Below are positions 42,392-61,480 of a stretch of DNA of 64,000 nucleotides, piece by piece; the first letter of the stretch is position 1; the number at the start of each line of letters is the position of its first letter. Position numbers and translations under genes: made by a program. Source of the stretch: an uncultured Ruminiclostridium sp. (GTDB lineage: Bacteria; Bacillota; Clostridia; Oscillospirales; Ruminococcaceae); NCBI GenBank assembly GCA_947630175.1, contig CANRGJ010000013.1, positions 7,090-71,089 on the forward strand. Direction: 5' to 3'. The notes below the pieces were generated by a model. That model was given only the letters and a program-made list of their open reading frames with translations. It made no database searches and was not told where the DNA came from.

Positions 42392-42723
42392 ATAACCACC
42401 CGTAGACAGTTGACAGTGTACAGTGCACAGTGAAAAGTTGAGGAGTTTTTCGCCGTAGGCGAAAAACGGATTAGGATTGCCGCCTGCAAATTCGCACCTG
42501 TCATCAAAATCCGTTTTTGCGAAGCAAAAACACCATAACTGTGCACTCATCACTTTGCACTCTTAACTTTTCGCTCTGCACTTTTGACTTTCGTTTGCGT
42601 GCAAATTCAACTTGCCGCCTGCAAATTCGCACCTGTCATTCAAATCCGTTTTTGCGAAGCAAAAACACCATAACTGTGCACTCATCACTTTGCACTCTTA
42701 ACTTTCAACCGTCAATTGTCAAT
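42392..42723. repeat. Heptamer-armed intergenic repeat, copy 1 (internal tandem duplication)
   Basis: ACAGTNN heptamer arm, TTTTTCGCCGTAGGCGAAAAA and TTTTTGCGAAGCAAAAA hairpins, CACTNNN arm; ~95-bp segment repeated at 135-bp spacing. Confidence 0.85.
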
Positions 42724-43215
42724 TTATTTAAGTTTAGAATAGTCTCTTTTGAAAAGCGCGCTTTCCAGCTTCCTTTTCAGCTTGAAGGAGGGTTTATCCT
42801 CCATGTGGAACGGCTCTACCAGAATGGTGGGCATACGCTTTAAATTCCCGCCGATGATGTCGGTGAATATCTGATCTCCCACCAGAGCGACGCTGTTTTT
42901 TGGTAGCCGCATTTTTTTCAGCGCCCTGCTGATACCAACGGTCAGCGGCTTGCAGGCAAAGGCGGTGTATTCCAGCCCCAGCTTTTTCGCCAGCGGCTCT
43001 ACCCGCTTTTTCGTGTTGTTGGACAAAACCCTCATCTTTATCCCCAGCCGCCGCATTTCCTCCAGCCATTCCATAACGCCCTCCTCGGCGGCGGGACTGC
43101 CGTGCATGGACAGCGTGTTGTCAAGGTCGAGGATAAGTCCGCGCAAATGATTTTTTTTGATGAAATCCTCGTCAATGGACAGCACGTTCTTCATCCACCA
43201 TTTAGGTTTAAACAT
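42724..43215 (-). CDS. yqeG: YqeG family HAD IIIA phosphatase
   Basis: LDLDNTL, VLSNN, ACKP, VGDQIFTDIIGGN. Confidence 0.9.
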   Translation of the reverse strand: MFKPKWWMKNVLSIDEDFIKKNHLRGLILDLDNTLSMHGSPAAEEGVMEWLEEMRRLGIKMRVLSNNTKKRVEPLAKKLGLEYTAFACKPLTVGISRALKKMRLPKNSVALVGDQIFTDIIGGNLKRMPTILVEPFHMEDKPSFKLKRKLESALFKRDYSKLK

Positions 43216-43320
43216 CTTGTGATAAGCCTTTCCAAAATATCATATATCCGCAAAAAAGAAATAAGCCAACCCTTTCAGGCTGGCTTACCGCTTTGTAAGT
43301 GCCGGAAACCGGCTTGATAT

Positions 43321-43497
43321 TTACTTGAACTTGCGCTTGCGAGCCGCTTCGGACTTTTTCTTGCGCTTTACCGAGGGCTTTTCGTAATGCTCTCTTTTGC
43401 GAACCTCAGCAAGTACGCCGTCGCGGGCGCAGGAACGCTTGAAACGCTTGAGCGCAGTTTCCAGTGACTCGTTTTTGCCCAGACGAACCTCTGCCAT
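43321..43497 (-). CDS. rpsU: 30S ribosomal protein S21 (58 aa, below ORF-track cutoff)
   Basis: Manual translation [58 protein letters not shown]; GGAGG RBS. Confidence 0.96.
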
Positions 43498-43583
43498 CTA
43501 TATCCCTCCTTTTGCCGTTTGGCACAAGGTAAATTTCATCGAACCGTTTAAGGCACAGCCTTAAAACCCAATGTTCACTTGAC

Positions 43584-43612
43584 ATTATACATTAAATTTA
43601 TCCCGTTGTCAA
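43584..43612 (-). promoter_or_regulatory. SigA promoter of rpsU
   Basis: TTGACA-17-TATAAT on minus strand. Confidence 0.8.
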
Positions 43613-43615
43613 TAG

Positions 43616-43969
43616 CTATTTCAAAAATTCTTCCGCACTTATCTCCACGCCGTCCTGCCACAGTCGCTCTAAATCGTAAAAATCTCTCGTTTCCTTGTGG
43701 AATATGTGTATCACCACGTCGATATAGTCCAGCACTATCCAGTTCGCCCCCTGATAGCCCTCGGTGCGTTTGGGCTCAAGTCCCGCCTGAGATAATTTAA
43801 ACTCCACCTCGTCCGCCAAAGCCTTGACCTGAGTTGAGCTGCTGCCGTTGGCTATGATGAAATAGTCTGCGATAACCGTCAGCTCATCTATCTTGATTAT
43901 CTTTATATTTTCTCCTCTTTTGCTGTCTATGGCTTTGACAGCTATTTCCAGAATTTCGTTATCCGTCAT
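43616..43969 (-). CDS. rsfS: Ribosome silencing factor
   Basis: KRGENI, ADYFIIANGSSSTQVKA, WIVLDYIDVVIHIF..R.FYDLERLW. Confidence 0.95.
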   Translation of the reverse strand: MTDNEILEIAVKAIDSKRGENIKIIKIDELTVIADYFIIANGSSSTQVKALADEVEFKLSQAGLEPKRTEGYQGANWIVLDYIDVVIHIFHKETRDFYDLERLWQDGVEISAEEFLK

Positions 43970-44550
43970 AGAATATACTCCTTTTTGTACTTTGCGTAGA
44001 AATTGTACCCTTCCAGCGTGCAGGCGGGTATCCTGTCCTTTTTGCCTATGGTCTTGCCTATCGACCAGCGCAGTATCATAAACATACCGTTGTCCAGGTC
44101 GTCCAATACTATTTTCCGATATTTTTCCACATCGTCATAATCTCTCTCCGCCGAAACGGTGTCCGCAAGAAAAACTATCTTTTCGATATCCGTCATATCC
44201 GCTTTTCCCACAGTGTGAAAGCGTATTGCGCTGAGTATCTCCTCGTCGGTTATCTTCAGCACATTCCTGACGTAATACGCTCCTGCGGGCGCATGCCACA
44301 GCTTCGGGCAGTCTATCTCGATAGGGTCGATATAAAACCCGCTGTTTTTTGCCTCCTCCAGCATAAGGTCAGGGTCGATCTCCTTCTGACAGTCGTGAAG
44401 AATTGCGGCGGTGTAAGCCTTGTCCACGTCAGCCCCGAACTTCTCCGCCAGCGTCACCGCCATTTTCGCCACATTGACGCTGTGCTTAAATCGTTTCCCG
44501 CCCATAAGGGGCTTTATTGTCTGTTCGTATTTTTTCAAGTCCTCGTTCAT
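43966..44550 (-). CDS. yqeK: HD-domain Ap4A hydrolase
   Basis: RFKHSVNV, ILHD, LWHAPAGA, IRFHTVG, FLAD; nadD-rsfS context. Confidence 0.88.
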   Translation of the reverse strand: MNEDLKKYEQTIKPLMGGKRFKHSVNVAKMAVTLAEKFGADVDKAYTAAILHDCQKEIDPDLMLEEAKNSGFYIDPIEIDCPKLWHAPAGAYYVRNVLKITDEEILSAIRFHTVGKADMTDIEKIVFLADTVSAERDYDDVEKYRKIVLDDLDNGMFMILRWSIGKTIGKKDRIPACTLEGYNFYAKYKKEYIL

Positions 44551-44604
44551 AATTTTGCTCTCTTTTAAATCAGAATTTATAATTTCCTGATAAATCGTAA
44601 GTTA

Positions 44605-45255
44605 TCAGCGTGCAAGTATGGTGTAAGTAGTTTTCCAGTTTCGCATAATTCGCACATCTGAAAATCCCGCTTTTTTCAGGACCTCAATTTCATGCTCCGC
44701 TGTCAGTGGCGTGTCATAGTGATAAAACTCATTCGGTTCAAGATCCTGCTCACTTTTCAGCTTTTCCAATTCAGAAAAGTAAAAATGTTCTGCTTCTTTC
44801 GACTCTGCGAAATAATCTGTCAGAACGAAATATCCATTGTCGGTCAGTGCGGTATTCAGCTTTTTATACAGCTTCAGCTTTTGTGCGGCGGTGAAGTGAT
44901 GGAGCGATTCGACTGAAACAGCGGCGTCAAGGCAGTTTGATCCAAAAGGAACATCGAAATAAGAACCGCAGATCAGCTTGATTTTGCGTTCTGAAAATTT
45001 CCGTTTCAGTGCCGTCAGCATATCGGCTGACAAATCGATCCCCACCACTGATGCTTCACTGTTCAGAATAAAGTAGTATTCAAGTTCAAGCCCTGTACCA
45101 CAGCCCAAATCAAGAACATTTACATCGTGTTCCAACGGCAGCAAGGCTGCTGTATAAGGATAAAATTCCTCTGCGCCCTCAATTTCCGTCATCATATGCT
45201 CTTCATATCCGTTCAAACGGGCAGTGAAAAAAGCGTCCATTTTTTCAAGCTTCAT
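44605..45255 (-). CDS. Class I SAM-dependent methyltransferase
   Basis: VLDLGCGTG, GIDLSADML, ESLHH; ATG 45255; more AT-rich than neighbours. Confidence 0.88.
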   Translation of the reverse strand: MKLEKMDAFFTARLNGYEEHMMTEIEGAEEFYPYTAALLPLEHDVNVLDLGCGTGLELEYYFILNSEASVVGIDLSADMLTALKRKFSERKIKLICGSYFDVPFGSNCLDAAVSVESLHHFTAAQKLKLYKKLNTALTDNGYFVLTDYFAESKEAEHFYFSELEKLKSEQDLEPNEFYHYDTPLTAEHEIEVLKKAGFSDVRIMRNWKTTYTILAR

Positions 45256-45277
45256 ATTATTCTCACTAACTTCCGCC

Positions 45278-45865
45278 TTATCCCCTATAAATCCCGTTTT
45301 CCAGAATATACTCCTTAACCTCCTCACTGAGCATTTCCGAAGTATCCCCGCCGTTTTTCAGCGTTTCCCGTATCAGGGTGGAAGAAACGTCGGTGACAGG
45401 CAGATTCAGCACCCGAACGTGCCCCAACTCTGCCGCCTTTTCGGTAAGGTCGGCGTAGCTGTCCTCCTCCCTTGCGGCGGCAACTACCGTACATTCCTTC
45501 AGTATACTTTCGTACCTGAACCACTTTTCAAAGGAAAAAAGCATATCCCCGCCGATAAGCAGGAAAAACTTCGTGCCCTTGGGGTAGTTGTCCTTTATTT
45601 TTCTGAGAGTATTTATAGTGTACCCCTCGCCGCCCAGTTTTTTCTCAATGTCGCTCACATTGTAAATTTTCCCCCGAAACGCCAGCCTGCACATCTCAAG
45701 GCGGTGCTGAAAGTCCGTGTCGGGAGTGGGTTTATGGGGGGAATGAAACGAGGGCATTATGATGATCTCCTCCAGCCCCAGCCGCTGACGACAGTTTTCC
45801 GCTAAGCGGATATGCCCAAGGTGCGGCGGGTCAAAGGCTCCCCCGAAAATTCCTACTCTTTTCAT
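45278..45865 (-). CDS. nadD: Nicotinate-nucleotide adenylyltransferase
   Basis: IFGGAFDPPHLGH, YTINT, LIGGD, VSSTLIR. Confidence 0.94.
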   Translation of the reverse strand: MKRVGIFGGAFDPPHLGHIRLAENCRQRLGLEEIIIMPSFHSPHKPTPDTDFQHRLEMCRLAFRGKIYNVSDIEKKLGGEGYTINTLRKIKDNYPKGTKFFLLIGGDMLFSFEKWFRYESILKECTVVAAAREEDSYADLTEKAAELGHVRVLNLPVTDVSSTLIRETLKNGGDTSEMLSEEVKEYILENGIYRG

Positions 45866-45889
45866 ATTTTACCTCTTTGCGTCTGAATA

Positions 45890-46183
45890 TCAGTCCAGAT
45901 AGGAGGGCCTTTTGTCGCCCTTTGGTCTGTGCTTGAAAAGCACTATCTTGTTTCCTATCACATGGACTATCTCACACTCCGCCGCCTCAGCCAGCACGCT
46001 TGCCGCCTCGCTTGGAGTAAGCTCACAGGTCTCCAGCACCTTCAGCTTTATCATCTCTCTTGCTTTCAGCGCGTCCTTTACCTGTTTTATCAGCGTATCT
46101 CCGATAGGATTTTTTCCCACCTGGAAGATCGTATCCATAGTTGAAGCTATGGACTTTAGTTTTGCTCTTTCTTTACTTGTCAT
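45890..46183 (-). CDS. yhbY: YhbY/CRM-domain RNA-binding protein
   Basis: MTSKERAKLKSIA, FQVGK, REMIKLKVL, VIGNKIVLF. Confidence 0.9.
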   Translation of the reverse strand: MTSKERAKLKSIASTMDTIFQVGKNPIGDTLIKQVKDALKAREMIKLKVLETCELTPSEAASVLAEAAECEIVHVIGNKIVLFKHRPKGDKRPSYLD

Positions 46184-46385
46184 AAAACCCCCGATGGCAG
46201 TTGACAGTGTACAGTGTACAGTGCAAAGTTGTGGAGTTTTTCGCCGCAGGCGAAAAACGGATTTGGATTGCCGCCTGCAAATTCGCACATGTCATTTCAA
46301 ATCCGTTTTTGCGAAGCAAAAACACCGTAACTGTGCACTTTTCACTTTGCACTCTTAACTTTTCGCTTTGCATTTTTAACTTATT
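46184..46385. repeat. Heptamer-armed intergenic repeat, copy 2
   Basis: Same core as copy 1 with CGCCGCAGGCG loop variant. Confidence 0.85.
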
Positions 46386-46976
46386 TTATTCCTTGTTATT
46401 TTTAAGTGTTTCAGCAAGTTTCTTCATCGCATTCGCCCTGTGGCTTATCTCATTTTTTTCTTCTTCGTCAAGCTCCGCCATACTTCTGCCGTCCTCAAGC
46501 ATAAATATGGGGTCGTAGCCGAAGCCGCCCTCGCCCACGGGCTCGTCGCCGATATAGCCGTCCAGAGTTCCTGTGACGCAGTATTCCCGCTTGTCGTCCA
46601 GAATGAAGTAGATCGCGCAGACGAACCTTGCGTTCCTCAGCGGCGTATCTACCCCCTGCATTTCCTCAAGCAGTTTTTCTATCCGTTCTCTGTCTGTGGC
46701 GTGTTCCCCTGCGTATCTTGCGGAATAAATTCCAGGCGCTCCGCCCAGAAATTCCACCTCAAGCCCGCTGTCATCGGCAATAACGGGCATACCCGACACC
46801 GCCCTCACAGCCTTCGCCTTGATATGGGCGTTTTCCTCAAAGGTCTCGCCGTCCTCAATTATTTCGGGGTCAACTCCCGCTTCCGCCATAGATACCGCCT
46901 CAAAGCCGTAAGGCGTCAGCAGTTTTCTGAATTCTCGGACCTTTCCCTCATTTTTTGTAGCAATTATAACTTTCAT
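46386..46976 (-). CDS. rdgB: Non-canonical purine NTP pyrophosphatase (RdgB/HAM1)
   Basis: ATKNEGK, ADDSGL, GAPGIYSARY, GFGYDPIF, ISHRA. Confidence 0.94.
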   Translation of the reverse strand: MKVIIATKNEGKVREFRKLLTPYGFEAVSMAEAGVDPEIIEDGETFEENAHIKAKAVRAVSGMPVIADDSGLEVEFLGGAPGIYSARYAGEHATDRERIEKLLEEMQGVDTPLRNARFVCAIYFILDDKREYCVTGTLDGYIGDEPVGEGGFGYDPIFMLEDGRSMAELDEEEKNEISHRANAMKKLAETLKNNKE

Positions 46977-47932
46977 TGTATTTCCTCAGTATCAGCGGTT
47001 TCAGTTTTTTCCGCAGTCAGATCCATTCCCTCAAACAAAGCCTCAGCGTAATCCTCAGGGATAAAGGGCTGAAGATCGTCTATCCTTTCGCCCACGCCCA
47101 CCAGCTTTACGGGAATGTCAAGCTCGTTTCTTATAGGTATTATTATACCACCTTTTGCCGTTCCGTCAAGCTTTGTGAGAACTATTCCCGAAATATCCGC
47201 CGCCTCTTTGAAAAGCCGCGCCTGATTTACGGCGTTCTGTCCCGTCGTGGCGTCAAGCACCAGCAGCGTTTCACGGGAGGAATCAGGCAGCTTCTGCATC
47301 GTTATCCTGTTTATCTTTTTAAGCTCCTCCATAAGATTTTTCTTATTGTGGAGCCGCCCTGCGGTATCTATTATGAGGACGTCATAGTTTTCCGCAAGGC
47401 ACTTGGTGCAGGCGTCGTAAACCACGGCGGCAGGGTCTGAGCCCTCCTCCCGCTTTACGATATCGACCCCAGCTCTGTCCGTCCACACGTTCAGTTGATC
47501 GATAGCCGCCGCCCTGAACACGTCTGCCGCCGCCACGAGGACTTTTTTCCCCTGCGCTTTCAGATTTGCGGACAGCTTGCCAACGGTGGTGGTCTTTCCC
47601 GCCCCGTTAACGCCTATCATGGTGATGACTGCGGGGGAGGAGGACAGGTCAAGCTGATTGTTCCCGCTTATCATCTGTGAGATGATCTCTTTCATCGCGG
47701 TCATAACTTCGCCCGTGTCCGACATTTTGTCCTGCTTTGCCCGTTCTCTCAGCCTGTCGCATATCTCCACAGCCGTTTCAGCGCCCAGATCCGCCGTTAT
47801 AAGCGTTTCCTCCAGCTCGTCGAAAAATTCGTCGTCTATCTTCTTGTATCCTCTGAACAGCTCGCCTATTTTTCCCGCAAGACTGTCCGTAGTCTTTTTC
47901 AGCCCGTTTTTCAGCTTTTCAAAAAGTCCCAT
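46973..47932 (-). CDS. ftsY: SRP receptor FtsY
   Basis: GVNGAGKTTT, DTAGRLH, DATTGQNA, TKLDGTAKGG. Confidence 0.97.
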   Translation of the reverse strand: MGLFEKLKNGLKKTTDSLAGKIGELFRGYKKIDDEFFDELEETLITADLGAETAVEICDRLRERAKQDKMSDTGEVMTAMKEIISQMISGNNQLDLSSSPAVITMIGVNGAGKTTTVGKLSANLKAQGKKVLVAAADVFRAAAIDQLNVWTDRAGVDIVKREEGSDPAAVVYDACTKCLAENYDVLIIDTAGRLHNKKNLMEELKKINRITMQKLPDSSRETLLVLDATTGQNAVNQARLFKEAADISGIVLTKLDGTAKGGIIIPIRNELDIPVKLVGVGERIDDLQPFIPEDYAEALFEGMDLTAEKTETADTEEIQ

Positions 47933-48289
47933 AAAACCCCCGATGACAGTTGAAAGTGTACAGTGTACAGTGAAAAGTTGAGGAGTTTTTCGCCGAAGGC
48001 GAAAAACGGATTAGGATTGCCGCCTGCAAATTTTTGCCTGTCATTCCAAATCCGTTTTTGCGAAGCAAAAACACCACAACTGTGCACTTTGCACTGTGCA
48101 CTCTTAACTTTTTTCTTTGCGCTTTTAACTTTCATTTGCGTGCAAATTCAAATTGCCGCCTGCAAATCAGCACTTGTCATTCCAAATCCGTTTTTGCGAA
48201 GCAAAAACACCACAACTGTGCACTTTGCACTGTGCACTCTTAACTTATCTTTGCACTTTTAACTTATCTTTGCATTTTTAACTTTCAGT
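47933..48289. repeat. Heptamer-armed intergenic repeat, copy 3 (internal tandem duplication)
   Basis: Same core with CGCCGAAGGCG variant; TTTTTGCGAAGCAAAAA twice. Confidence 0.85.
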
Positions 48290-51200
48290 TTATTCAAGTT
48301 CTTCCTCCACGTCCGCCAGCTCCTGCCTGAGCAGTCTTGACACGCCCTTTTCCTGCATAAACACTCCGTACAGCACGTCGCAGCCCTCTATCGTTCCTCT
48401 TCGGTGAGTTATTGTCATAAGCTGGGTACTGCCCGAAAAGCGCTTTAGGTAGGTTATGTACTTCACCACGTTCACCTCGTCAAGGGCGGCGTCCACCTCG
48501 TCCAGCATACAAAACGGCGTGGGCCTGTGGAGCAGCATTGCGAAATAAAGCGTTATCGCCACCATAGTCTGCTCCCCGCCCGACAGGGAAATAAGGTTCT
48601 TTATCAGCTTTCCCGGCGGGGCGGCGTATATCTCTATCCCGCTGTTCAGAACGTCGTTCGGGTCGGTAAGCTCCAGATGAGCGCTGCCCCCGCCGAACAC
48701 CTCGATGAATACCCGCTGAAAATGCTCGTTTATGTCGTTGAAGCTGGACAAAAATCTCGCCTTTATATCGGCGGTGAGGCTTTCTATCAGCTTTTCCAGC
48801 TCTCTCTTGGAGCTTTCCACGTCGTCAAGCTGTTTTTTAAGCTCAGCGAAACGTGCCGAGACCTCCTCGTATTCCTCGATTGAGGCGAAGTTCACGTTGC
48901 CCAGGGCGGTTATCTTCCGCCTTAACTCCGCAAGCCTGCTCTTTGCGGCGGAAATGTCCTTTGGAACGCTTGCGGCGGCGTAAGCCTCGGTGGGAGTCAT
49001 CTCGTACTTGTCCCACAGCCCCGACTTAATTCGCTCGCTTTCCTTTTCGCAGGCGTCCTTTCGCTCGGTAGCTATGGCAAGAGCGTTGGAGAATTTTTCC
49101 TTGTCCTCGCTTTTTTCTCTTATCTCCCTGTTTATCTCGCCTGAGCGCTTTTCAAGGGCGTTCAGCTGTTCTATCAGCTCTGCGCCCTCGTCCTTGCTTC
49201 CTGCAAGACGGGCTTTGAGAGCCTCTCCCTGCTTTACCTTTTCCTCGATGTCGGAATTTAGCTGAGCTATCTTTTCCTCCTGCTCCGCTATTTCCTGTTG
49301 AAGTGCGTTCCCGCCAAGGTCGAGAGCTTTCCTGCTCTCCTCCATATCCGCCTTGCGGGACTGTATATGCTCAATATCCTTTTTCAGCGCAAGATTTTCC
49401 AGTCCTAAAGCGGTAATTTTATCGCCAAGGGCGTTTCTTTCCTCAAGGCGTTTCTGCACGCCCTCGTCCGCCTGCTTTATGCTCTGGGCAAGCGCCTCTG
49501 CGTCCTTTTCGCACTGAGCAAGGTCTTTTTTGCTCTGCTCTATCGTTTCGTTATATTTTGCAATATCCGTGTCCGCGCGGGCAAGCATAGCTTCCTCGCT
49601 GTCCTGCTGTTCCTCTGCGGAGGAAATAAGCTGTTTTGTTGCGGCGATCTCTGCGCTGATACCCGTTTCCTCCGCATTTGCGGCGGCAAGCTGTTCGTTG
49701 TAGCCCTCCATTTCAATGGACATCTTGTTGACTTCCTCACGGAGGACGGACAATTCTTCATTTGCGGTTTTCAGCTTTGCGGAAAGCTCCTCCGCTTTCA
49801 CGGTCAGCGTTTCTATCTCCTGATTTCTTGCGATTATCCCTGAGGTTTCCTTTAAAGAACCGCCTGTAAAGGAACCCCCTGCGTTTATCACCTGACCGTC
49901 AAGGGTAACTATCTTGAATTTGTAGCCGTTTTTCTTTGCGATTACCGTTGCGGTGTCGATGTCCTCCACCACGGCGCACCTGCCTAAAGCGAACCTGATT
50001 ATATCCTCATACTTTTTGTCACATTTTACAAGCTGGCTAGCTATCCCCTCAAAGCCGTATTCCCCCTCAAGGTCTGCGTTCAGCACGTTGCCCTTTACCG
50101 AGGTCAGCGGCAGGAAGGTAGCCCGTCCGCCGCCTGTTTCCTTAAGATAGCGTATGCACCTTTTTGCGGCGTCCTCATTCGTCACAATAACGTTCTGCAA
50201 AACTGCTCCCAAAGCGGTCTCGATAGCAACGGTGTACTTTTTGTCCACCTTGATGACGTCCGCCACCGTGCCCTCGACGCCGCTGACCTTTCCGTGCCTT
50301 GCGGCGTTTATCACGGACTTTACGCTGGAGGCGTACCCCGCCATATTCTTCTCCACGTCGGAAAGAATCTCCAGCCTTGACTTGCACTGTTCATGCTCAC
50401 GGCGAAGCTGTTCAAAACTGCTTTGCTTTTCCTCCAGCTTTGCCTTTTTCCCGCCGAACAGACGGGAATAGCCTGACAGCTTGTTTTCAGCCTCGTTTTT
50501 GCTTTCCTGCACCGAGGACAGCTTTTCCTCCAGCTCCTTGCGCTTTGCCCGCCATTCCTTTATCTGCGCCTCTCTCGCCTCAAAATGCTCTTTTGAAGCG
50601 GCAAGCCGTTCCTGAAGGTCGGTAATGCTCTGTGCGGCGGACTCGGCGGTGAGCTGTAACTGCGTCTTTTTCGTCAGCAGCTCGCTCTGCCTGTTTTCCA
50701 GCTCCTTGTATTCACGGTCAAACTCGTCGTTCTTTGCCGACATTTCCGAAAGCTGTGCGCCAAGGCGCTTTGCCTGCTCGTCGTTGCTTTGCAGTAGCTT
50801 TTCTTTTCCTTCTATCTCAGCTTCGGCGGCGTTTATCTTTTCTTCAAGCTCAGCCGATCCGTTTTCGCTGTCCTTTATCTGCTGTTTTATCTGCTCTATT
50901 TTTTCGTTGCAGTGAAGAATCTCGTTTTCCAAAACCGCCTTTTCGCGGTCGGCGGCGGCTATCTCGTCCCTTGCGGCGTCGCCTTTTCTGCGCAGCTCCT
51001 CCTGCTGTGCGGAGATAAGCATTTTCTTTTCCGCAATTTCTTCGTTTTCCCGTTCCAACTCCTCTATCTCACGCTGAAAATGCTCACATTCCCCTTGATT
51101 TGCAAGTATCCTGTCGTCCTGCTCAATAAGCTCTCTGCCTATCCTCTCCAAGTCCCACACGCCGACGCCTATATCAAGGGCTTTTTCCTCCTCCATAAGC

Positions 51201-51850
51201 ACCCGCGCCTGTCTTGCCTTTTCCGACTGCTTTTCCAGCACGGGAATACGGGCGGAAAGCTCCGTTTCGATATCCTTCAGGCGCATTATGTTGTCGTTGG
51301 CTCTGGCAAGGTCACGCTCCGCCTCCTGCTTTCTGTGGAGGAATTTGGAGACTCCCGCCGCCTCTTCAAAAAGCTCCCTCCTTTGAGTATCACGGCTGTT
51401 TATGACTTCCGAAACTCGTCCCTGCCCGATAATGGAATAACCGTCACGTCCGAGACCCGTTCCCATAAGCAGCTCCTGAACGTCTTTAAGACGGCTTTTT
51501 TCATTGTTTATCAGATATTCACTGTCGCCCGTTCTGTACAGCTTTCTTGTGATGATAACCTCGTCGCTGTCCACATTCAGCGCCCTGTCAGTGTTGTCAA
51601 TGGTGAGGGAGACCTTGGCAAAGCCCATAGGCTTGCGGGATACGGTGCCGTGAAAGATAACGTCCTCCATCTTATCTCCGCGCAGAGTTTTAGCGCCCTG
51701 CTCTCCCATAACCCAGCGCAGGGCGTCGCTTATGTTGCTTTTGCCGTTGCCGTTGCTTCCCACGATAGCGGTCATTTTCCTGTCGAAATTCAGCTCCGTC
51801 TTGTCCGCAAAGGACTTGAACCCCTGAATTTCCATGGATCTAAAAAACAT
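48290..51850 (-). CDS. smc: Chromosome segregation protein SMC
   Basis: GSNGNGKSN Walker A, coiled coils, hinge GGRATFLPL, LSGGE signature, LDEVDAALD. Confidence 0.97.
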   Translation of the reverse strand: MFFRSMEIQGFKSFADKTELNFDRKMTAIVGSNGNGKSNISDALRWVMGEQGAKTLRGDKMEDVIFHGTVSRKPMGFAKVSLTIDNTDRALNVDSDEVIITRKLYRTGDSEYLINNEKSRLKDVQELLMGTGLGRDGYSIIGQGRVSEVINSRDTQRRELFEEAAGVSKFLHRKQEAERDLARANDNIMRLKDIETELSARIPVLEKQSEKARQARVLMEEEKALDIGVGVWDLERIGRELIEQDDRILANQGECEHFQREIEELERENEEIAEKKMLISAQQEELRRKGDAARDEIAAADREKAVLENEILHCNEKIEQIKQQIKDSENGSAELEEKINAAEAEIEGKEKLLQSNDEQAKRLGAQLSEMSAKNDEFDREYKELENRQSELLTKKTQLQLTAESAAQSITDLQERLAASKEHFEAREAQIKEWRAKRKELEEKLSSVQESKNEAENKLSGYSRLFGGKKAKLEEKQSSFEQLRREHEQCKSRLEILSDVEKNMAGYASSVKSVINAARHGKVSGVEGTVADVIKVDKKYTVAIETALGAVLQNVIVTNEDAAKRCIRYLKETGGGRATFLPLTSVKGNVLNADLEGEYGFEGIASQLVKCDKKYEDIIRFALGRCAVVEDIDTATVIAKKNGYKFKIVTLDGQVINAGGSFTGGSLKETSGIIARNQEIETLTVKAEELSAKLKTANEELSVLREEVNKMSIEMEGYNEQLAAANAEETGISAEIAATKQLISSAEEQQDSEEAMLARADTDIAKYNETIEQSKKDLAQCEKDAEALAQSIKQADEGVQKRLEERNALGDKITALGLENLALKKDIEHIQSRKADMEESRKALDLGGNALQQEIAEQEEKIAQLNSDIEEKVKQGEALKARLAGSKDEGAELIEQLNALEKRSGEINREIREKSEDKEKFSNALAIATERKDACEKESERIKSGLWDKYEMTPTEAYAAASVPKDISAAKSRLAELRRKITALGNVNFASIEEYEEVSARFAELKKQLDDVESSKRELEKLIESLTADIKARFLSSFNDINEHFQRVFIEVFGGGSAHLELTDPNDVLNSGIEIYAAPPGKLIKNLISLSGGEQTMVAITLYFAMLLHRPTPFCMLDEVDAALDEVNVVKYITYLKRFSGSTQLMTITHRRGTIEGCDVLYGVFMQEKGVSRLLRQELADVEEELE

Positions 51851-51859
51851 TGCCTGTCC

Positions 51860-52870
51860 TCAATTTCTTTTATCGTCTGCGGCGTGTATCTCCAAAAGAA
51901 CGCCGCTTTTTTCCTTCATTTTGAAAGTTATCCCCTGCTCCGCCAGCGCATGCTTGTTGCAGCCGCCGTGTCCCGAAACAAGGCTCATATTCTTCCTGTC
52001 CGTGTAGATAATGAACCTGCTCCCGCCGATCTTTTCCATCTCAGCGAGCATTTTCCTGTACATTCTCCTGCTTTCCACTATGTCTCCGAGAGCAGGGTGG
52101 TAAGCTCCGCCTGTGCGCTGTTTTGCCACTTCCTCAGAGGCGTGAAGCCCAAGGCGTATCACGGGAATGTTCTTTTCCTCAAAAAAGTCCAACAGCTTTG
52201 CGCAAAGCTCCACCGTTTCCTCGAAAGAAAAGCTGTTGTAAAGCCCCTTTTCCCTCAGCTCGTCCAACATCGTGCCTTTAAGTATAACGGTTGGGTATAT
52301 CCTCACCGTGTCGCATTTCAGCTCTGCAAATTCTCTTGCAGTTTCAAGGCAGTATTCAGGCTTATCACCGTACAGTCCCGTCATCATCTGCAAGCCCAGC
52401 TCAATGCCGTAAGCCTTGATCAACTTGCTTGCCCGCCTTACGTCCTCGGCGGTATGACCACGGAGATTTGCTTTCAGCACCTCGTCGTTCATGCTCTGAG
52501 CGCCCAGCTCCACCGCCGTGACGCCGAACAGCTTAAGCTCCTCCATTATCTCCTCGTCAATGCAGTCGGGGCGGGTGGAACAGCGTATCCCGCCGTACTG
52601 TTCGGGGAACGCCTTAACATATTCCGAAGCGGCAAGGAGCAGCTCCCGCCGATAATCCTTATCCACAGCGGTAAAGCTGCCGCCGAAAAATGCGATCTCC
52701 GCCTGTAAATTATTTTTTTGCAGCAAAGGCACCTGCGCCGCCAGAATCTCCCTCACTTCCTCAGGGAAAGGCGCTCTCTCGCTCCCGCTGATGAACCGCT
52801 GATTGCAGAAAGAGCAGGTGTTTGGACAGCCCTTGTGGGGGATAAATATGGAAAGATTAGTTTGTTTCAT
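51860..52870 (-). CDS. Radical SAM protein (Elp3/YhcC-like)
   Basis: CPNTCSFC; AFFGGSFT, STRPD, ELGAQS; conserved position between rnc and smc. Confidence 0.88.
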   Translation of the reverse strand: MKQTNLSIFIPHKGCPNTCSFCNQRFISGSERAPFPEEVREILAAQVPLLQKNNLQAEIAFFGGSFTAVDKDYRRELLLAASEYVKAFPEQYGGIRCSTRPDCIDEEIMEELKLFGVTAVELGAQSMNDEVLKANLRGHTAEDVRRASKLIKAYGIELGLQMMTGLYGDKPEYCLETAREFAELKCDTVRIYPTVILKGTMLDELREKGLYNSFSFEETVELCAKLLDFFEEKNIPVIRLGLHASEEVAKQRTGGAYHPALGDIVESRRMYRKMLAEMEKIGGSRFIIYTDRKNMSLVSGHGGCNKHALAEQGITFKMKEKSGVLLEIHAADDKRN

Positions 52871-53534
52871 AGCCCATCAGCTTTACAGCTTCTTTTGCGG
52901 CGTTTTGCTCCGCCTCTTTTTTGCTTGCGCCAACGCCCGTTCCGATTATCTGTCCGTTTAAAAGCACGTTTGAAGTGAAGGTCCTGTTGTGCGCCGCGCC
53001 GCTTTCGTCCGCAAGCTCATAAACTACCTTTTCTTCGGGATTTTGCTGGATTATCTCCTGCAAAATAGTCTTGTAGTCCCCGATAAGGAGCTTCCCGCTT
53101 TTCAGCACGTCGATAGGGGGGATAAACGGCAAAATGAAATTTTGCGCCGCCGAAAATCCTCCGTCAAGATAAATAGCCGCTATCAGCGCCTCAAATGCGT
53201 CCGCAAGGATCGAACGGCGGTGGCGTCCGCCCGTGTTTTCCTCGCCCTTGCCAAGGAATATCTCGTTGCCCAGCCCTATTTTTTCCGCAAAAGGGAACAG
53301 GGAATGCTCGCACACTATGCTGGCTCTCAGCTTTGTGAGCTGACCCTCGGGCTTGTCTAAATTTTCAAAAAGATACTTTGAAACTACCAGAGAAAGCACG
53401 CTGTCCCCCAGAAACTCCAGCCGTTCGTTGCTGTGGTGGTTTTTCCCGCCAACGAAGGAAGAATGGGTCAGCGCCTCTTTAAGCAGTCCCTTATCCTTAA
53501 ATTCATATCCTATCCGCTGTTCAAAATCAGTCAT
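52857..53534 (-). CDS. rnc: Ribonuclease III
   Basis: NERLEFLGDSVL, ADAFEALIAAIYLDGG, dsRBD DYKTILQE; ATG 53534 (TTG 53540 alternative). Confidence 0.97.
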   Translation of the reverse strand: MTDFEQRIGYEFKDKGLLKEALTHSSFVGGKNHHSNERLEFLGDSVLSLVVSKYLFENLDKPEGQLTKLRASIVCEHSLFPFAEKIGLGNEIFLGKGEENTGGRHRRSILADAFEALIAAIYLDGGFSAAQNFILPFIPPIDVLKSGKLLIGDYKTILQEIIQQNPEEKVVYELADESGAAHNRTFTSNVLLNGQIIGTGVGASKKEAEQNAAKEAVKLMGYETN

Positions 53535-54555
53535 TTGCAACCTCTGTACCGTCTGTATTCAGCTTCTGCAGCGCGGCGGTCATCTCCTCGATAACGTTGT
53601 TTTCGATAAATTCCTTCGCCTGCCTTACCGCATTCTTGAACGCCAAAGCGTCGCTGCTGCCGTGAGCCTTTATAACAGGCTTTGCCGTACCCAGCAGGGG
53701 AGAACCGCCCGTTTCACGGTAGTCCATTTTCCTTGACAGCTCCTTTATCCCTTTCATTGTGAAAAGAGAGCCTATCTTCGTGCCGAAATTCTTGAAAAAC
53801 AGGCGTTTCAGGGAAATCTTCATAAATTTTCCCATACCCTCGATAGTTTTCAGATAAACATTCCCAGTAAAGCCGTCCGTCACCAGAACGTCACAGCCGC
53901 CAAGAGCCGCCTCTCTGCCCTCGATACTGCCGATGAAGTTTACAGGCGCTTTTAGCAGCAATTCTCTCGCCTCGCGCTCCAAGTCCCTGCCCTTTTCCTC
54001 CTCGGTGCCCACGTTGAGCAGTCCTACACGGGGACTTTGCACGTTCATTATCTTGTCCATATAAACGCTGCCCATAACGCCGAACTGCTGTAACATCTCT
54101 GCTCTGCACTCCACGTTCGCCCCGCCGTCAAGGAGTATGTAGTTATTGTCCGCCGAGGGCATTATGGGAGCAAGTGAGGGGCGCTTCACGCCCTTTATCC
54201 TGCCTATCAGGGTAGTACCGCCCACCACCAGCGCCGCCGTACTGCCGCCGCTGATGAAAGCGTCCGCCTCGCCGTTTTTCACAAGCTGGAACGCAACGCC
54301 CATTGAGCTGTTCAGCTTAGCCTTTCTTATGTCGGTGGGATTGTCCTCTATTCTGATAACGCCGTCTGCGTTTTTCACCGTGATATTCTGAGTTGAAACG
54401 CCCAGCGCCTTTATTCTCTCGTTTACCTGCTTTTCGTCGCCGCAGAGAACGATATTGACGCCGTATTCCTTTACCGCCAGCGCGGCGCCCTTTATCACCT
54501 CGTCGGGAGCGTTGTCGCCGCCGAAAGCGTCCATTGCGACTGTTATCTTTGCCAT
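53527..54555 (-). CDS. plsX: Phosphate acyltransferase
   Basis: AMDAFGGDNAP, LLDGGAN, GLLNVGTEEEKG, DGFTGN, KAHGSS. Confidence 0.96.
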   Translation of the reverse strand: MAKITVAMDAFGGDNAPDEVIKGAALAVKEYGVNIVLCGDEKQVNERIKALGVSTQNITVKNADGVIRIEDNPTDIRKAKLNSSMGVAFQLVKNGEADAFISGGSTAALVVGGTTLIGRIKGVKRPSLAPIMPSADNNYILLDGGANVECRAEMLQQFGVMGSVYMDKIMNVQSPRVGLLNVGTEEEKGRDLEREARELLLKAPVNFIGSIEGREAALGGCDVLVTDGFTGNVYLKTIEGMGKFMKISLKRLFFKNFGTKIGSLFTMKGIKELSRKMDYRETGGSPLLGTAKPVIKAHGSSDALAFKNAVRQAKEFIENNVIEEMTAALQKLNTDGTEVAND

Positions 54556-54577
54556 TTTAACAAACCCCTTTCCGATT

Positions 54578-55870
54578 TTACTTAGCGTAAGCGGCTTTCA
54601 GCCTTTCAAGCCCTCTCGCCGCTATCTTTTCATATCTGTCCTGCTTGTTTTTTATATTTTCCTCAAGGGGCGGGAGTATCCCCATATTCGCCCCCATAGG
54701 CTGAAAATCCTTGTTTTCCGTGGAAACGTGCCTGCAAAGAGCATTGCATATAGTGCCGTCGGGAAGTACAAGCTCCTCTTCCCCCAAAAGCCTTTTTGCA
54801 AGGCTTATCCCTGCGATAATTCCACTCATTGCGCTTTCAACGTAGCCCTCCACCCCTGTCATCTGTCCTGCGAAAAAGACGTTTTCACTGCCCTTAAGCA
54901 TAAACCTGCCGTCAAGGAGCAGGGGAGAGTTTAAAAACGTGTTGCGGTGCATAACGCCGTATCTTGCAAATTCGGCGTTTTCAAGCCCCGGTATCATACC
55001 GAACACCCGCTTTTGCTCAGGGAATTTCAGATTTGTCTGAAATCCCACGATATTGTACAGCGTTCCCTCGGCGTTTTCCTTGCGAAGCTGGACTGCCGCC
55101 CAAGGGCGGTGACCGGTGCGGGGGTCGGTAAGTCCCACAGGCTTCATACAGCCGTATCTCACGCTTTCCTCCCCGCGCTTTGCCAGGACCTCGACAGGCA
55201 TACAGCCCTCGTAAACGGTCAGGTTTTCAAACTCCTTTAAAGGAGCCGTTTCCGCATTTATCAGTTCGTTATAGAACCGCTGATATTCCTCCCTGTTCAT
55301 AGGGCAGTTGATGTAGTCCGCCTCCCCCTTGTCATAGCGGGTGGCGAAAAACGCCCTTGTCATATCAATGCTCTCAAAGGTAACGATTGGAGCCGCGGCG
55401 TCATAGAAGCTGAGCGTATCGCCGCATTTTTCCCTTATCGCCTGCGCCATTTTGTCGGAGGTGAGAGGACCCGTAGCTATCACCGTGTCCTTTTCGGGAA
55501 AGCAGGTTATCTCCTCCGAAACCACCGTTATATTGGGGTGGGAATTTATCTTTTCGGTAACGTAATCGGAGAAAAGCTCGCGGTTCACCGCCAGCGCTCC
55601 TCCTGCGGGAACGGCTGTTTTGTCCGCCGCCTCAAGTATCAGCGAGCCCAGTATCCGCATTTCAGCTTTCAGCATACCGCTTGCGCTGTTTATCCTCGCC
55701 GCTTTCAGGGAGTTGGAGCATACCAGCTCCGCCAGACCGTTATAGCGGTGAGCAGGGGTACGCTTGTTCGGCTTCATCTCAAAAAGCGTGACCTTTATTC
55801 CTCTTTCCGCCAAAGCCCAAGCCGCCTCACAGCCTGCAAGCCCGCCGCCGATGACTGTCGCTTTATTCAC
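54578..55870 (-). CDS. trmFO: tRNA (uracil-54) methyltransferase TrmFO
   Basis: GGGLAGCEAA, ELVCSNS, FYDAAAP, GFQTNL, YGVMHRN, GVEGYVES. Confidence 0.96.
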   Translation of the reverse strand: MNKATVIGGGLAGCEAAWALAERGIKVTLFEMKPNKRTPAHRYNGLAELVCSNSLKAARINSASGMLKAEMRILGSLILEAADKTAVPAGGALAVNRELFSDYVTEKINSHPNITVVSEEITCFPEKDTVIATGPLTSDKMAQAIREKCGDTLSFYDAAAPIVTFESIDMTRAFFATRYDKGEADYINCPMNREEYQRFYNELINAETAPLKEFENLTVYEGCMPVEVLAKRGEESVRYGCMKPVGLTDPRTGHRPWAAVQLRKENAEGTLYNIVGFQTNLKFPEQKRVFGMIPGLENAEFARYGVMHRNTFLNSPLLLDGRFMLKGSENVFFAGQMTGVEGYVESAMSGIIAGISLAKRLLGEEELVLPDGTICNALCRHVSTENKDFQPMGANMGILPPLEENIKNKQDRYEKIAARGLERLKAAYAK

Positions 55871-55882
55871 AAAAACAGCTCC

Positions 55883-57967
55883 TTAATTTTCGTCAGGTTC
55901 TCTCTCGTAATCGCAGCCCTCGCCGTCGCAGTATATCTTACCCTTTTTGCCCGCCTTTTTGAACAGCGTTTTACCGCATTTGGGGCAGGTCTCGGGGATG
56001 GGCGTATCCCAGTTCATATAGCCGCATTCCTTGTAGTTTTCACAGCCGAAGAAGGGCTTTCCCTTTTTGGATTTTTTCGCCAGCATCTTGCCGCCGCATC
56101 TGGGGCAAAGTCCGCCTGTTTCAACTACTATCTTCTTCGTGTTTTTACATTCGGGAAATCCCGAACAGCCTAAAAACTTCCCGTAAGGCCCTATCTTTAT
56201 CACCATAGGCTTTCCGCAAAGCTCACAGACCTGGTCGGTAGGCTCGTCGGGTATCTTCACCCGCTTGCCGTCCATTTCCTCCTCCGCTTTTGTGAGAGTT
56301 TTGGAGAAATCTTTGTAGAAATCTCTCAAAACCTCCACCCATTCCTCCTTGCCCTCTTCTATCTTGTCAAGGTCGGTCTCCATTTTTGCGGTGAATTTAA
56401 CGTCCACGATATGCTGAAAATGGTCTTCCAGCAGGACGGTTATGGTATCGCCGAGAGGCGTTGGCTTGAGCTGTTTCTGCTCAAATTCCACATAATGCCT
56501 GTCAAGTATTGTTGAAATAGTGGGAGCGTAGGTGGAAGGTCTTCCTATGCCGTTTTCCTCCAGCGCCTTTATCAAAGTCGCTTCGTTGTATCTTGGAGGT
56601 GGCTGGGTGAAGTGCTGATTGCCTGTCAGCTCCTGCACCTTCAGCTTTTCTCCCTCAGTCAGCTTGGGAAGCGCGCCGCCGTTTTCCTCGTCGTTTTCGG
56701 AAACCTCGGCGTACAGCTTGGTAAAGCCCTCGAACTTCACGGTAAAGCCGTTTGCCTTGAAGGTACAGTTGCCCGCTTTTATAGAGGCGGCAACTGTGTT
56801 CAGCTGAGCGTTAGCCATCTGGCTCGCCATAAATCTCTCCCATATCAGCTTGTACAGCTTATACTGGTCAGAGGTAAGACTGCTCTTTATGCTCTGAGGA
56901 GTTAATGCTACCGTTGAAGGGCGCACCGCCTCGTGAGCGTCCTGAACGTTACTTTTCGTCTTGTACGTTCTGGGCTTGTCAGGCAGGTAGTCCTCGCCGT
57001 AAAGCTCCTTGATAAGCGCCGCCGCAGCCGCCTTTGCCTCGTCGGAGATACGCAGGCTGTCAGTTCTCATATAGGTGATAAGACCAACTGCGCCCTGACC
57101 CTCTATCTCAACGCCCTCGTACAATTCCTGCGCCGCTTTCATTGTGCGGCGGGAGTTAAAGCCTAAGCGTCTGTTCGCCTCCTGCTGTAAGGTGGAAGTG
57201 GTGAACGGGGGAGCAGGCTGTTTCTTGCGGGTGGATTTTTTTATCTCGTCTACCACAAAGTCCTGTCCCTCAAGGCTTTTCAGTATCTTGTCGGCGTCCG
57301 CCTTGCAGTTTAGCTCCGCTTTCTTTCCGTCCACCTCGGACAGCTTGACAGGAAAAGCCTTTTTGCTTGAAGCGGCAAGGAGCTTTCCGTCAATGCTCCA
57401 GTATTCCTTGGGAACGAACGCCTTTATCTCGTTTTCACGGTCGACTATCAGCTTTACTGCCACGGACTGAACGCGTCCCGCCGAAAGCCCTCTGCGCACC
57501 TTTTTCCACAGGAACGGGCTCAGCTTGTACCCCACGATACGGTCAAGGATACGCCTTGCCTGCTGTGCGTTTATCAGGTCGGTGTCAAGACTGCGGGGAT
57601 TTTTCATTCCCGCCTCAACGCCGCTTTTCGTTATCTCGGAAAATGTGACTCTGATAGGCTGACTTCCGTCAAGTCCCAGCACGTTGGCAAGGTGCCATGA
57701 AATGGCCTCTCCCTCACGGTCAGGGTCGGTTGCAAGGTACACTTTTCCCGACTTCTTGACGTAGCCCTTCAGCTCCTTTATCAGATTTGCCTTATCCTTC
57801 TTGTTTTCGTAAACGGGGGCGAAATCATGCTCCACGTCCACGCCAAGCTTTGATTTTGGCAGATCTCTTATATGTCCCGCACAGGCGACAACGTGATATT
57901 TTTTGCCCAGATATTTTTGTACGGTCTTCGCCTTTGAGGGCGACTCCAAAATTACTAAGTCTGACAT
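55883..57967 (-). CDS. topA: DNA topoisomerase I
   Basis: ESPSKAK, ATDPDREGEAI, SAGRVQS, ITYMRTDS, GIGRPSTY, C-terminal Zn ribbons. Confidence 0.97.
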   Translation of the reverse strand: MSDLVILESPSKAKTVQKYLGKKYHVVACAGHIRDLPKSKLGVDVEHDFAPVYENKKDKANLIKELKGYVKKSGKVYLATDPDREGEAISWHLANVLGLDGSQPIRVTFSEITKSGVEAGMKNPRSLDTDLINAQQARRILDRIVGYKLSPFLWKKVRRGLSAGRVQSVAVKLIVDRENEIKAFVPKEYWSIDGKLLAASSKKAFPVKLSEVDGKKAELNCKADADKILKSLEGQDFVVDEIKKSTRKKQPAPPFTTSTLQQEANRRLGFNSRRTMKAAQELYEGVEIEGQGAVGLITYMRTDSLRISDEAKAAAAALIKELYGEDYLPDKPRTYKTKSNVQDAHEAVRPSTVALTPQSIKSSLTSDQYKLYKLIWERFMASQMANAQLNTVAASIKAGNCTFKANGFTVKFEGFTKLYAEVSENDEENGGALPKLTEGEKLKVQELTGNQHFTQPPPRYNEATLIKALEENGIGRPSTYAPTISTILDRHYVEFEQKQLKPTPLGDTITVLLEDHFQHIVDVKFTAKMETDLDKIEEGKEEWVEVLRDFYKDFSKTLTKAEEEMDGKRVKIPDEPTDQVCELCGKPMVIKIGPYGKFLGCSGFPECKNTKKIVVETGGLCPRCGGKMLAKKSKKGKPFFGCENYKECGYMNWDTPIPETCPKCGKTLFKKAGKKGKIYCDGEGCDYEREPDEN

Positions 57968-58125
57968 AAATCCCCCAGTTGACAGTTGACAGTTGACAGT
58001 GTAAAGTGTAAAGTTAAGGTGTTTTTTGCCTTTGGCAAAAAACAGTTTTTGGATTGTCGCCTGCGTATCTGCGCATTTTGCGTTGATCCGTTACAGGATT
58101 TTTTTACATTGTCAACTATCTACTG
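57968..58125. repeat. Heptamer-armed intergenic repeat, divergent copy 4
   Basis: (GACAGTT)n arm, TTTTTTGCCTTTGGCAAAAAA hairpin, GGATTGTCGCCTGCG core, GTCAACT arm. Confidence 0.7.
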
Positions 58126-61301: not shown

Positions 61302-61359
61302 GGTCAGACACTCCTTCCGATAGTTGATAGTTTTTAGTTGTTAGTAGTTAGTTTGTGAA

Positions 61360-61480
61360 AAATAAAAAGCACGGGAAGACGCTCCCGTGCCGAAAAATCA
61401 TAGTTATAGATCTTCCGCAAAACATTGACCCTTTCGCAAAGCTGGGGGTGAGAGCAAATCTTCTTTTTGTTATGCACTTA
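61360..61480 (-). promoter_or_regulatory. L20-leader-like attenuator upstream of infC-rpmI-rplT
   Basis: AGAAG..GCTCTCACC motif then GCACGGGA/TCCCGTGC terminator + TTTTT between promoter and infC; position matches the Firmicute L20 leader. Confidence 0.7.

Follow-up and report, generated by a model that had tools for sequence, protein, structure and literature searches.

What kind of element can fill the whole gap between two housekeeping genes, up to the ribosome-binding site (RBS) of the second, and where did it come from? The question is raised by a stretch of 64,000 nucleotides (the window) from an uncultured Ruminiclostridium sp. (assembly GCA_947630175.1, contig CANRGJ010000013.1, positions 7,090 to 71,089), in which four intergenic gaps are occupied by copies of a heptamer-armed hairpin element. 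An earlier note, made from the sequence alone, had taken them for a mobile or gene-converted element that brings its own Shine-Dalgarno sequence (SD). The explanation that we favor, and to which as a whole we would give a probability of roughly two in three (0.68), is that these are old, largely immobile hairpin cassettes of the intervening-sequence (IVS) type, without an open reading frame (ORF), which expanded in an ancestor and displaced or replaced the SD of the genes behind them. It is built on the anatomy of the elements, their census in the genome, the empty sites in relatives, the association of arm ends with a particular SD, and the homology of their frame with cassettes that enclose PF05635 genes.

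The four copies form one family, as the earlier note had recognized (repeat finder group D3 at 42389, 46180, 47929 and 57965; 79-87% identity over 84 nt), and each takes up an entire gap, beginning with the first base behind the upstream stop codon and ending with the last base ahead of the downstream ATG, which makes 332, 202, 357 and 158 nt for copies 1 to 4. Read in gene direction, a simple copy runs from a heptamer arm through a GC hairpin, a core stem of about 45 nt and a second GC hairpin to an inverted heptamer arm. The arms are mutually inverted tracts with a period of 7 nt, as had been reported, and between them stand three stems, two perfect GC hairpins and one core stem, rather than the two hairpins described before. 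In copies 1 and 3 an inner unit is duplicated in tandem (about 135 nt; repeat groups D1 and D2); in gene direction, copy 1 reads as a degenerate left arm, two units of left arm, T5GC hairpin and core, then hairpin 2, the right arm and the SD. In predicted folds the arms form one long imperfect stem that encloses the three hairpins and leaves the SD just outside (z = -2.8 for copy 2 and -7.9 for copy 4). The copies and their parts are these:

42392-42723, minus strand: copy 1, from the yqeG stop to the nfo-like ATG, ending in the SD GGGTGG
42396-42401, minus strand: G-rich SD GGGTGG of copy 1, with 4 nt between it and the right arm and another 4 nt to the nfo-like ATG
42405-42439, minus strand: right heptamer arm of copy 1, CAACTTT TCACTGT GCACTGT ACACTGT CAACTGT
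46184-46385, minus strand: copy 2, from the rdgB stop to the yhbY ATG, a single unit
46188-46192, minus strand: SD GGGGG of copy 2, inside CATCGGGGGTTTTATG (yhbY)
46196-46230, minus strand: right heptamer arm of copy 2, CACTGTA/CACTGTC/AACTGCC
46237-46257, minus strand: hairpin 2 of copy 2, a perfect palindrome, TTTTTCGCC-TGC-GGCGAAAAA
46259-46304, minus strand: core stem of copy 2, GGATTTG...TGCGAATTTGCAGGCGGCAATCCAAATCC, the sole strand-asymmetric part
46306-46322, minus strand: hairpin 1 of copy 2, perfect, TTTTTGC-TTC-GCAAAAA
46334-46385, minus strand: left arm of copy 2, GTGCAAA GTGAAAA GTGCACA (GTGNAAA/GTGCACA type), fading into A-rich heptamers until the rdgB stop
47933-48289, minus strand: copy 3, from the smc stop to the ftsY ATG, two units of arm, hairpin and core
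47937-47941, minus strand: SD GGGGG of copy 3
47945-47979, minus strand: right arm of copy 3
57968-58125, minus strand: copy 4, from the stop of the TrmH-family gene to the topA ATG, with a more divergent core
57972-57976, minus strand: SD GGGGG of copy 4, with the right arm reaching up to 58015
58022-58042, minus strand: hairpin of copy 4, TTTTTTGCC-AAA-GGCAAAAAA
58099-58125, minus strand: left arm of copy 4

These four are a small sample of the family. The window lies in contig C13 of its assembly, here called G000 (2.70 Mb in 46 contigs, 45.8% GC; completeness 100%, contamination 0.17%). BLAST searches with the window copies gave 109 merged loci in G000, and a strict arm pattern (MACTKNN, at least three times) found 136 arms, against 0 in the shuffled genome; merged with the arm tracts, the BLAST loci amount to 107 element loci, and 41 inverted "-/+" arm pairs are complete. 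None of the 136 arms falls inside a coding sequence predicted by a simple codon-usage ORF caller (2272 genes, 86% coding; 6 of 8 window starts recovered). In the densest region nearly all intergenic gaps are occupied, with arms adjoining stop codons as well as start codons. A perfect hairpin of at least 6 bp lies within 45 nt inside the arm at 93 of 135 arms, compared with 5.7% of random 45-mers, and its stem takes at least seven different forms, all exact palindromes (GTCCGC/GCGGAC, ATCGCC/GGCGAT, TnCGCC, TnCGGC, TnGC, TnGCC, GTACTTTCGG and others). So many exact palindromes at one position argue for conservation of the hairpin itself, with a sequence that can be exchanged. The core occurs 38 times, in co-directional gaps 20 times in sense and 10 times in antisense, so that the common orientation noted earlier holds for the window but not for the genome. 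On the gene strand the elements show no convincing promoter or terminator and are thus most likely transcribed within operons; an Rfam scan of the window region left them unmatched.

Two further observations belong with the census. In the ATP synthase operon (C3:224-234 kb of G000), several intercistronic gaps hold elements, and an extra ORF of 82 codons lies between atpA and atpG. Elsewhere on C3 (120734-120830, 129008-129100, 145850-145940) a G-rich module is joined to arms, in the form TCAGAGGGCGGGAGC ... arm ... GGGGG(C/T)GGGAGGGTGGGG; the TCAGAGGGCGGGAGC/GGGAGGGTGGGG module has at least eight copies, often beside a terminator-like hairpin.

What stood in these gaps before the elements can be read from relatives. 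The genes that flank the four copies are all on the minus strand and are ordinary housekeeping genes, and the RNase III gene lies among them:

41534-42391, minus strand: nfo-like gene (TIM-barrel endonuclease), downstream of copy 1
42724-43215, minus strand: yqeG, upstream of copy 1
45890-46183, minus strand: yhbY, downstream of copy 2
46386-46976, minus strand: rdgB, upstream of copy 2
46973-47932, minus strand: ftsY, downstream of copy 3
48290-51850, minus strand: smc, upstream of copy 3
52857-53540: rnc (RNase III gene)
55883-57967, minus strand: topA, downstream of copy 4
58126-58905, minus strand: TrmH/RlmB-family methyltransferase gene, upstream of copy 4

The synteny of this block (TrmH-family gene, topA ... 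smc, ftsY, rdgB, yhbY, nadD ... yqeG, nfo-like gene) is kept in congeners. The nearest element-poor relative, G070 (LepA 97%), and six other congeners are syntenic and free of elements at these junctions. The four gaps of G070 measure 4-45 nt, and its SDs are GGAAGGA for the nfo-like gene, CGGAGAA for yhbY, GAGGAA for ftsY and CAGGAG for topA; that of ftsY lies within the 3' end of smc, the stop/start junction being TAAAATG. Five of the congeners (G001, G008, G041, G042, G052) have AAAGGA(G)-type SDs and short gaps at most junctions, while G032 and G041 carry longer, unrelated sequence at some. The G5 run is absent from the junctions of all element-free congeners compared. The earlier note had held that the same RBS in relatives lacking the element would speak against it; G070 and the other congeners have SDs of other types. 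In the element-free G041, the yqeG-nfo and trmH-topA junctions contain inserts of 600-800 nt that consist of a direct duplication of about 300 nt, in which the upstream gene's 3' end is included; here the same gaps have been widened by another route.

In G000 and in its sister species G005, by comparison, GGGGG or GGGTGG directly follows the right arm at all four junctions. The RBS strings had been quoted correctly: yhbY and ftsY are both preceded by the same CATCGGGGGTTTTATG, topA by GGGGGATTTATG and the nfo-like gene by GGGTGGTTATATG; in copy 2 the right arm is followed by ATCGGGGGTTTT and then by the yhbY ATG. Neither the ATG nor the first codons come from the element; they belong to the gene. 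At smc-ftsY, trmH-topA and rdgB-yhbY, the ancestral SD-like sequence, at or in the 3' end of the upstream gene, is now beyond the far side of the element. Across the genome 25 arms end no more than 40 nt before a start on the same strand, and nearly all of these have an SD between arm and ATG. At 15 of the 25 genes it is a G-run, as against 157 of 2247 other genes (7%; odds ratio 20, p = 1.4e-11). A 15-mer, ATCGGGGGTTTTATG, is identical at three unlinked genes (ftsY, yhbY and C18:6535) and nearly so at C3:241096. The inner modules of these copies differ and the 15-mer does not, which argues for identity by descent rather than convergence.

The SD need not have been borne by the element, however. 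The cassettes may have landed upstream of native SDs, or the SDs may have evolved in place, the G-run then being a product of local selection or gene conversion. Arm ends that face no start have a G-run within 35 nt in merely 4 of 111 cases (14 of 25 among those that face one), 11 of the 25 start-facing ends retain ordinary SDs (AAGGAG, GGAGA), and cassettes of similar build in two other genomes, G205 and G297, described below, lie upstream of canonical AAGGAG SDs. There are also weak resemblances between ACGGAGAAAAAATG of G070 and TCGGGGGTTTTATG of G000, and between CATCGGAGA of G005 and ATCCGGGGG of G000. Yet an independent origin of the 15-mer at three unlinked genes is impossible, the type of SD changed together with the insertion at all four window junctions, the ancestral SD of ftsY inside smc is now about 360 nt from the ATG, and G-run SDs serve few genes elsewhere. 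We regard this alternative as possible, if on the doubtful side. The earlier idea of an element with its own SD stands to the extent that G-run SDs are enriched about 20-fold at arm-adjacent starts; given the 4 in 111, it can at best apply to a subfamily, or reflect copying among start-facing ends. We read the SD now in use as part of the element edge, and in one or more subfamilies it was probably copied when the arm end was.

The age of the family is indicated by its distribution. Among 30 relatives it is numerous only in G005 (about 95% average nucleotide identity [ANI] to G000; FtsY 99% identical), and three other genomes have one weak match each. When 301 genomes of the taxonomic family were scanned with the pattern, similar tracts appeared in low numbers in several other genera, with 186 matches in G000 and at most 24 elsewhere. 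Over the 607 kb of G005 that are syntenic with the element-rich contigs of G000, nearly all G000 loci with both flanks mapped have an element at the same site; the differences lie in the number of inner units or of arm heptamers, and no clean insertion specific to G005 was seen. Of about 100 loci there is a lone filled/"empty" pair (C15:25885-26033 in G000), and its G005 site retains arm-like remnants and resembles a decayed copy. Loci common to both genomes place the expansion before the species split and imply that the family is now nearly immobile. The mobile or gene-converted element of the earlier note thus holds as a dispersed, lineage-restricted family that fills gaps, but not as one that is seen to move between G000 and G005.

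Size (about 100-400 bp) and terminal inverted repeats are those of a MITE (miniature inverted-repeat transposable element), and the inverted arms, intergenic placement, patchy occurrence across genera and GC-rich palindromic hairpins resembling repetitive extragenic palindromic (REP) sequences could all be cited for an ordinary DNA-transposon MITE, or a REP-type element such as a bacterial interspersed mosaic element (BIME), moved by a DDE, Y1 (IS200/IS605) or REP-associated tyrosine transposase (RAYT) enzyme that recognizes the arms or hairpins. The linked HUH/Y1 transposase that had been anticipated is not common to the two element-rich genomes: PF01797 (Y1) is represented by one truncated fragment on a small contig of G000 and is absent from G005, PF07282 (TnpB) is absent from G000, and no transposase with matching ends was found, the DDE families not having been searched exhaustively. 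An intact Y1 gene is lacking, and the hairpin stems have no constant tetranucleotide head (GTAG/CGTC) of the kind that RAYT systems would call for. No target-site duplication is evident at the four junctions against the empty sites of G070, where degenerate heptamers blur the boundaries, and arm length varies in whole heptamers. Moreover, the arm word changes between related cassettes while the frame is kept, and presence/absence polymorphism is almost nil at about 95% ANI. A transposon origin of this sort seems to us quite improbable. Phage and plasmid collections gave no match to the elements; a metagenome scan with a 17-mer of the core, a pattern too short for the purpose, returned 120 matches, all attributable to chance, with an arm at 1 of 80 loci and that one off the match.

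A more informative resemblance is to cassettes around PF05635 genes. PF05635 is the "23S rRNA intervening-sequence protein" (S23p), an Avd-like four-helix bundle. All four PF05635 genes of G205 and one in G297 are enclosed by a heptamer arm, a GC hairpin, the gene, a GC hairpin and an inverted arm, and these cassettes sit between a stop codon (or tRNA gene) and the SD of the next gene. Their heptamer words differ (ACAGTTA, ACAGGTA, GAATAAT, AGTGGAA) but are always the same in both arms of one cassette. At the inner junctions, one G205 cassette matches a G000 copy over CAGTTAAGGTATCG in 14 of 14 nt and over AAATCCGTC.GC...GCGGACACC.CAA.TG in 29 of 33 nt, which 0 of 500 shuffles reach; it is suggestive that the G000 core resembles the fused untranslated ends of a PF05635 gene. 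In a survey of 30 PF05635 loci from 200 Clostridia genomes, the density of period-7 tracts was nine times as high up to 350 nt from the gene as beyond (0.90 against 0.10 per kb); the strict detector placed such tracts at 14 of the 30 loci, and 5 loci have recognizable arms on both sides. The homology of the window elements to these cassettes concerns the frame only. All copies lie between protein-coding genes, not at the helix 25 or helix 45 location of 23S rRNA; the 16S 3'-end sequence was not found in the G000 assembly, and 23S genes were not searched for. G205 also has arms and GC hairpins around a cargo of about 190-350 nt that is GC-rich, non-coding and apparently structured (C2:2583244-2583502 and ~2659200-2659607), with ends GCCCATTCGGGC ... 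GGCCGAATGGCC and no Rfam match; one copy adjoins three tRNA genes.

The family is also confined to part of the chromosome. Seven contigs (C3, C11, C15, C12, C13, C8 and C18; 727 kb, 27% of the assembly) hold 133 of the 136 arms (98%), and C1, C2, C4 and C7 (1.08 Mb, including rpoBC and secA) hold none. C3 carries dnaA, dnaN, gyrB, gyrA, mnmG and serS, and arm density peaks at 15 in the 20-kb bin directly left of dnaA (gyrA, gyrB, dnaN). The same confinement is found in G005. A chimeric bin or mis-binning is ruled out by the completeness and contamination values and by G005, an independent assembly with the same pattern; ANI values of 92-95% outside the region and 94-96% inside it rule out a recent transfer from one species to the other as well. 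There is no sign of import from a distant donor, as FtsY (inside) and LepA (outside) give the same ranking of relatives. Neighbors separated by less than 10 kb resemble each other more closely than the remaining copies do (80.0% as against 74.4%, p = 1e-4), a likeness that points to local copying or local gene conversion. The notion that dnaA/oriC is the exact centre of the element domain is weakened by a GC-skew minimum and a switch of gene strand near C3:220-230 kb, the skew minimum lying about 70 kb from dnaA. C3:235-289 kb holds a one-strand accessory island, which encodes large proteins of vWA-like and TIR-domain type, and after it a Mu-like prophage; both are free of arms, and their strong positive GC skew displaces the apparent skew minimum.

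Such a distribution, shared with G005 and with its peak around dnaA-dnaN-gyrB-gyrA, is what one would also expect of domain marks at the DNA level, heptamer arrays bound like parS or ram sites by a structural or segregation protein. Set against this are the lack of a candidate binding protein, the quite different heptamers and cargo genes in cassettes of the same class in other genomes, a contig order that is only partly known together with the offset skew minimum, and the fact that local copying can explain the clustering. We consider it extremely improbable that the arrays serve this end.

Under the explanation that we favor, the family would have multiplied in the common ancestor of the two sister species, where it entered co-transcribed DNA at the junctions of stop and start codons, and would afterwards have been almost immobile, changing through duplication or loss of units and local copying. 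At the arm end facing a start, the ancestral SD would have been displaced or replaced, and translation may now rely on an SD, in most cases CGGGGGT, immediately 3' of the arm; in one subfamily or more, the G-run was probably duplicated together with the arm end. The transcript would fold into the long arm stem with the SD just outside it and, by analogy with IVSs, could be a substrate of RNase III. A cut there would part the cistrons, so that the downstream message would keep a short leader with its G-run SD and be initiated independently. Folding, processing, independent initiation and the route of insertion are all things we infer from analogy and arrangement.

Several points weigh against this explanation, apart from the rarity of G-runs at arm ends that face no start, which may mean that selection or spread brought the G-run there only once the element was in place, and that it did not arrive with it. 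The arms of one element pair no better with each other than with the arms of other elements (-33.6 against -34.1 kcal/mol), so that no co-evolution of arms is apparent, and the sense RNA is not more stable than the antisense (7 against 12 elements, p = 0.49). Without a stability bias toward the sense strand, there is no sign of selection acting on the RNA; the strand symmetry of the structure is what DNA palindromes would give. No PF05635 gene or remnant was detected in the six frames of G000 and G005, the window elements being ORF-less, nor was a PF05635 cassette with ACAGTGT/ACAGTTG arms found, and no autonomous partner was identified; the missing gene fits an ORF-less, stranded family. Finally, no clean insertion boundary can be defined, the sole filled/"empty" pair looking like a decayed copy.

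The same symmetry bears on the idea that the elements form a host regulon, their heptamer tracts being mRNA sites to which a post-transcriptional regulator binds, a role suggested before for the TAACTGA repeats of Beggiatoaceae. The tracts do adjoin the SD or start of 25 genes, essential ones included, and their core AACTGNN resembles TAACTGA (PMC4679880). Arms adjoin stop codons equally, however, and sit between convergent genes, neither core orientation nor RNA stability favors the sense strand, close relatives with the same genes lack the family, and what limits its occurrence is a chromosomal region, not a set of genes with a common function. We hold a regulon to be very improbable.

A stronger form of the IVS idea would make the elements "mRNA intervening sequences" that enter cistron junctions, are excised by RNase III and carry a portable G-run SD from which the downstream essential gene is re-initiated, with copying coupled to replication or to a chromosomal domain and no free transposase. 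On these terms, the confinement to the quarter around dnaA and the likeness of neighbors would reflect just such a coupled copying mechanism. We judge this version unlikely, and keep to the old and largely immobile cassettes.

The heptamer tract that the earlier note had placed at the infC RBS is there, five units adjoining it:

61319-61357, minus strand: solo arm of the related heptamer type NNAACTA, five units, between an L20-leader-like region and the infC SD GGAAGGAG

The only Rfam match in the window region is a weak one to the L20 leader upstream of infC (61357-61471, minus strand; 32.8 bits against a gathering score of 58.7). Three tandem 53-nt repeats (61613-61771; 87-92% identity) lie divergent from infC. 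A perfect 12/12 sigma-70 consensus, TTGACA-17-TATAAT, is located at 43612-43584 (minus strand) just 3' of the rsfS stop (43616), in the rsfS-run/yqeG gap; as a consensus match it suggests an internal promoter of that gene string.

Two old and poorly explained observations, the short tandemly repeated repetitive (STRR)/TAACTGA heptamer repeats and the IVSs of rRNA, are seen here in one object, and our literature search found no paper connecting rRNA IVS heptamers with TAACTGA repeats. The essential operons affected include smc-ftsY, rdgB-yhbY, topA, the atp operon and the surroundings of dnaA-gyrBA. They offer a concrete and testable case of a selfish insert tolerated between translationally linked genes, with the new RBS at the edge of the insert, and any model for the spread of such cassettes must account for their regional confinement. 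They also carry a warning for annotation, as in such genomes repeat elements shape SD-based start prediction and operon calls.

Among known systems, pneumococcal BOX A-B(n)-C and the BIMEs of E. coli are modular, MITE-like repeats. The elements described here share with these, and with the Nezha MITE of Anabaena/Nostoc, inner units that vary in number, folds predicted to be stable and intergenic positions in operons, but differ in having arms of tandem heptamers, no matching insertion sequence or transposase found, and no target duplication in evidence. The REP2 repeats of Neisseria and the inverted repeats (IR) of Borrelia are dispersed intergenic repeats with stem-loops that supply the downstream RBS (Delihas 2011, PMC3184786), and in dispersal, internal stem-loops and an RBS for the next gene the present elements are like them; REP2, in contrast, carries a promoter and an ATG and is without terminal inverted arms or heptamer arrays. 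Direct repeats of the heptamer TAACTGA directly upstream of start codons occur in marine Beggiatoaceae, Cyanobacteria and Bacteroidetes (MacGregor 2015, PMC4679880). With these and the cyanobacterial STRR heptamers our elements have in common an AACTG-type core before many starts, essential genes included, a patchy phylogeny and a mechanism of mobility that is not known. The TAACTGA repeats, however, are direct and replace a recognizable SD, whereas here paired inverted arms enclose hairpins, an SD is present and the heptamer is related rather than identical.

The IVS at helix 45 of the 23S rRNA of Coxiella burnetii contains an S23p ORF, a 28-bp terminal stem and tandem GACAGAT heptamers of variable number, and is excised by RNase III at the first heptamer (PMC4990558). 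The elements resemble it in the long stem formed by terminal inverted repeats and in tandem heptamers (GACAGAT there, GACAGTT/TACAGTG here) whose number varies between strains. As with rRNA IVSs generally, they are inserted in transcribed DNA and tolerated, and relatives of their frame enclose the same PF05635 family. Unlike these, they lie in intercistronic gaps of mRNA instead of rRNA helices, have no ORF, number about 110, and add two GC hairpins and a core stem, with the SD at the outer end; their excision by RNase III is conceivable by inference only. In the strict sense the elements fall in none of these classes: they have no ORF and are not in rRNA, as an IVS would be; neither the transposase nor the target duplication of a MITE was found for them; they do not fit REP/RAYT; and an SD is present, which sets them apart from TAACTGA repeats. 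What they add to the known systems is an example from the Bacillota, with about 110 copies in essential operons, clean empty sites, a statistically strong link between arm end and an unusual G-run SD, and confinement to the quarter of the chromosome around dnaA.

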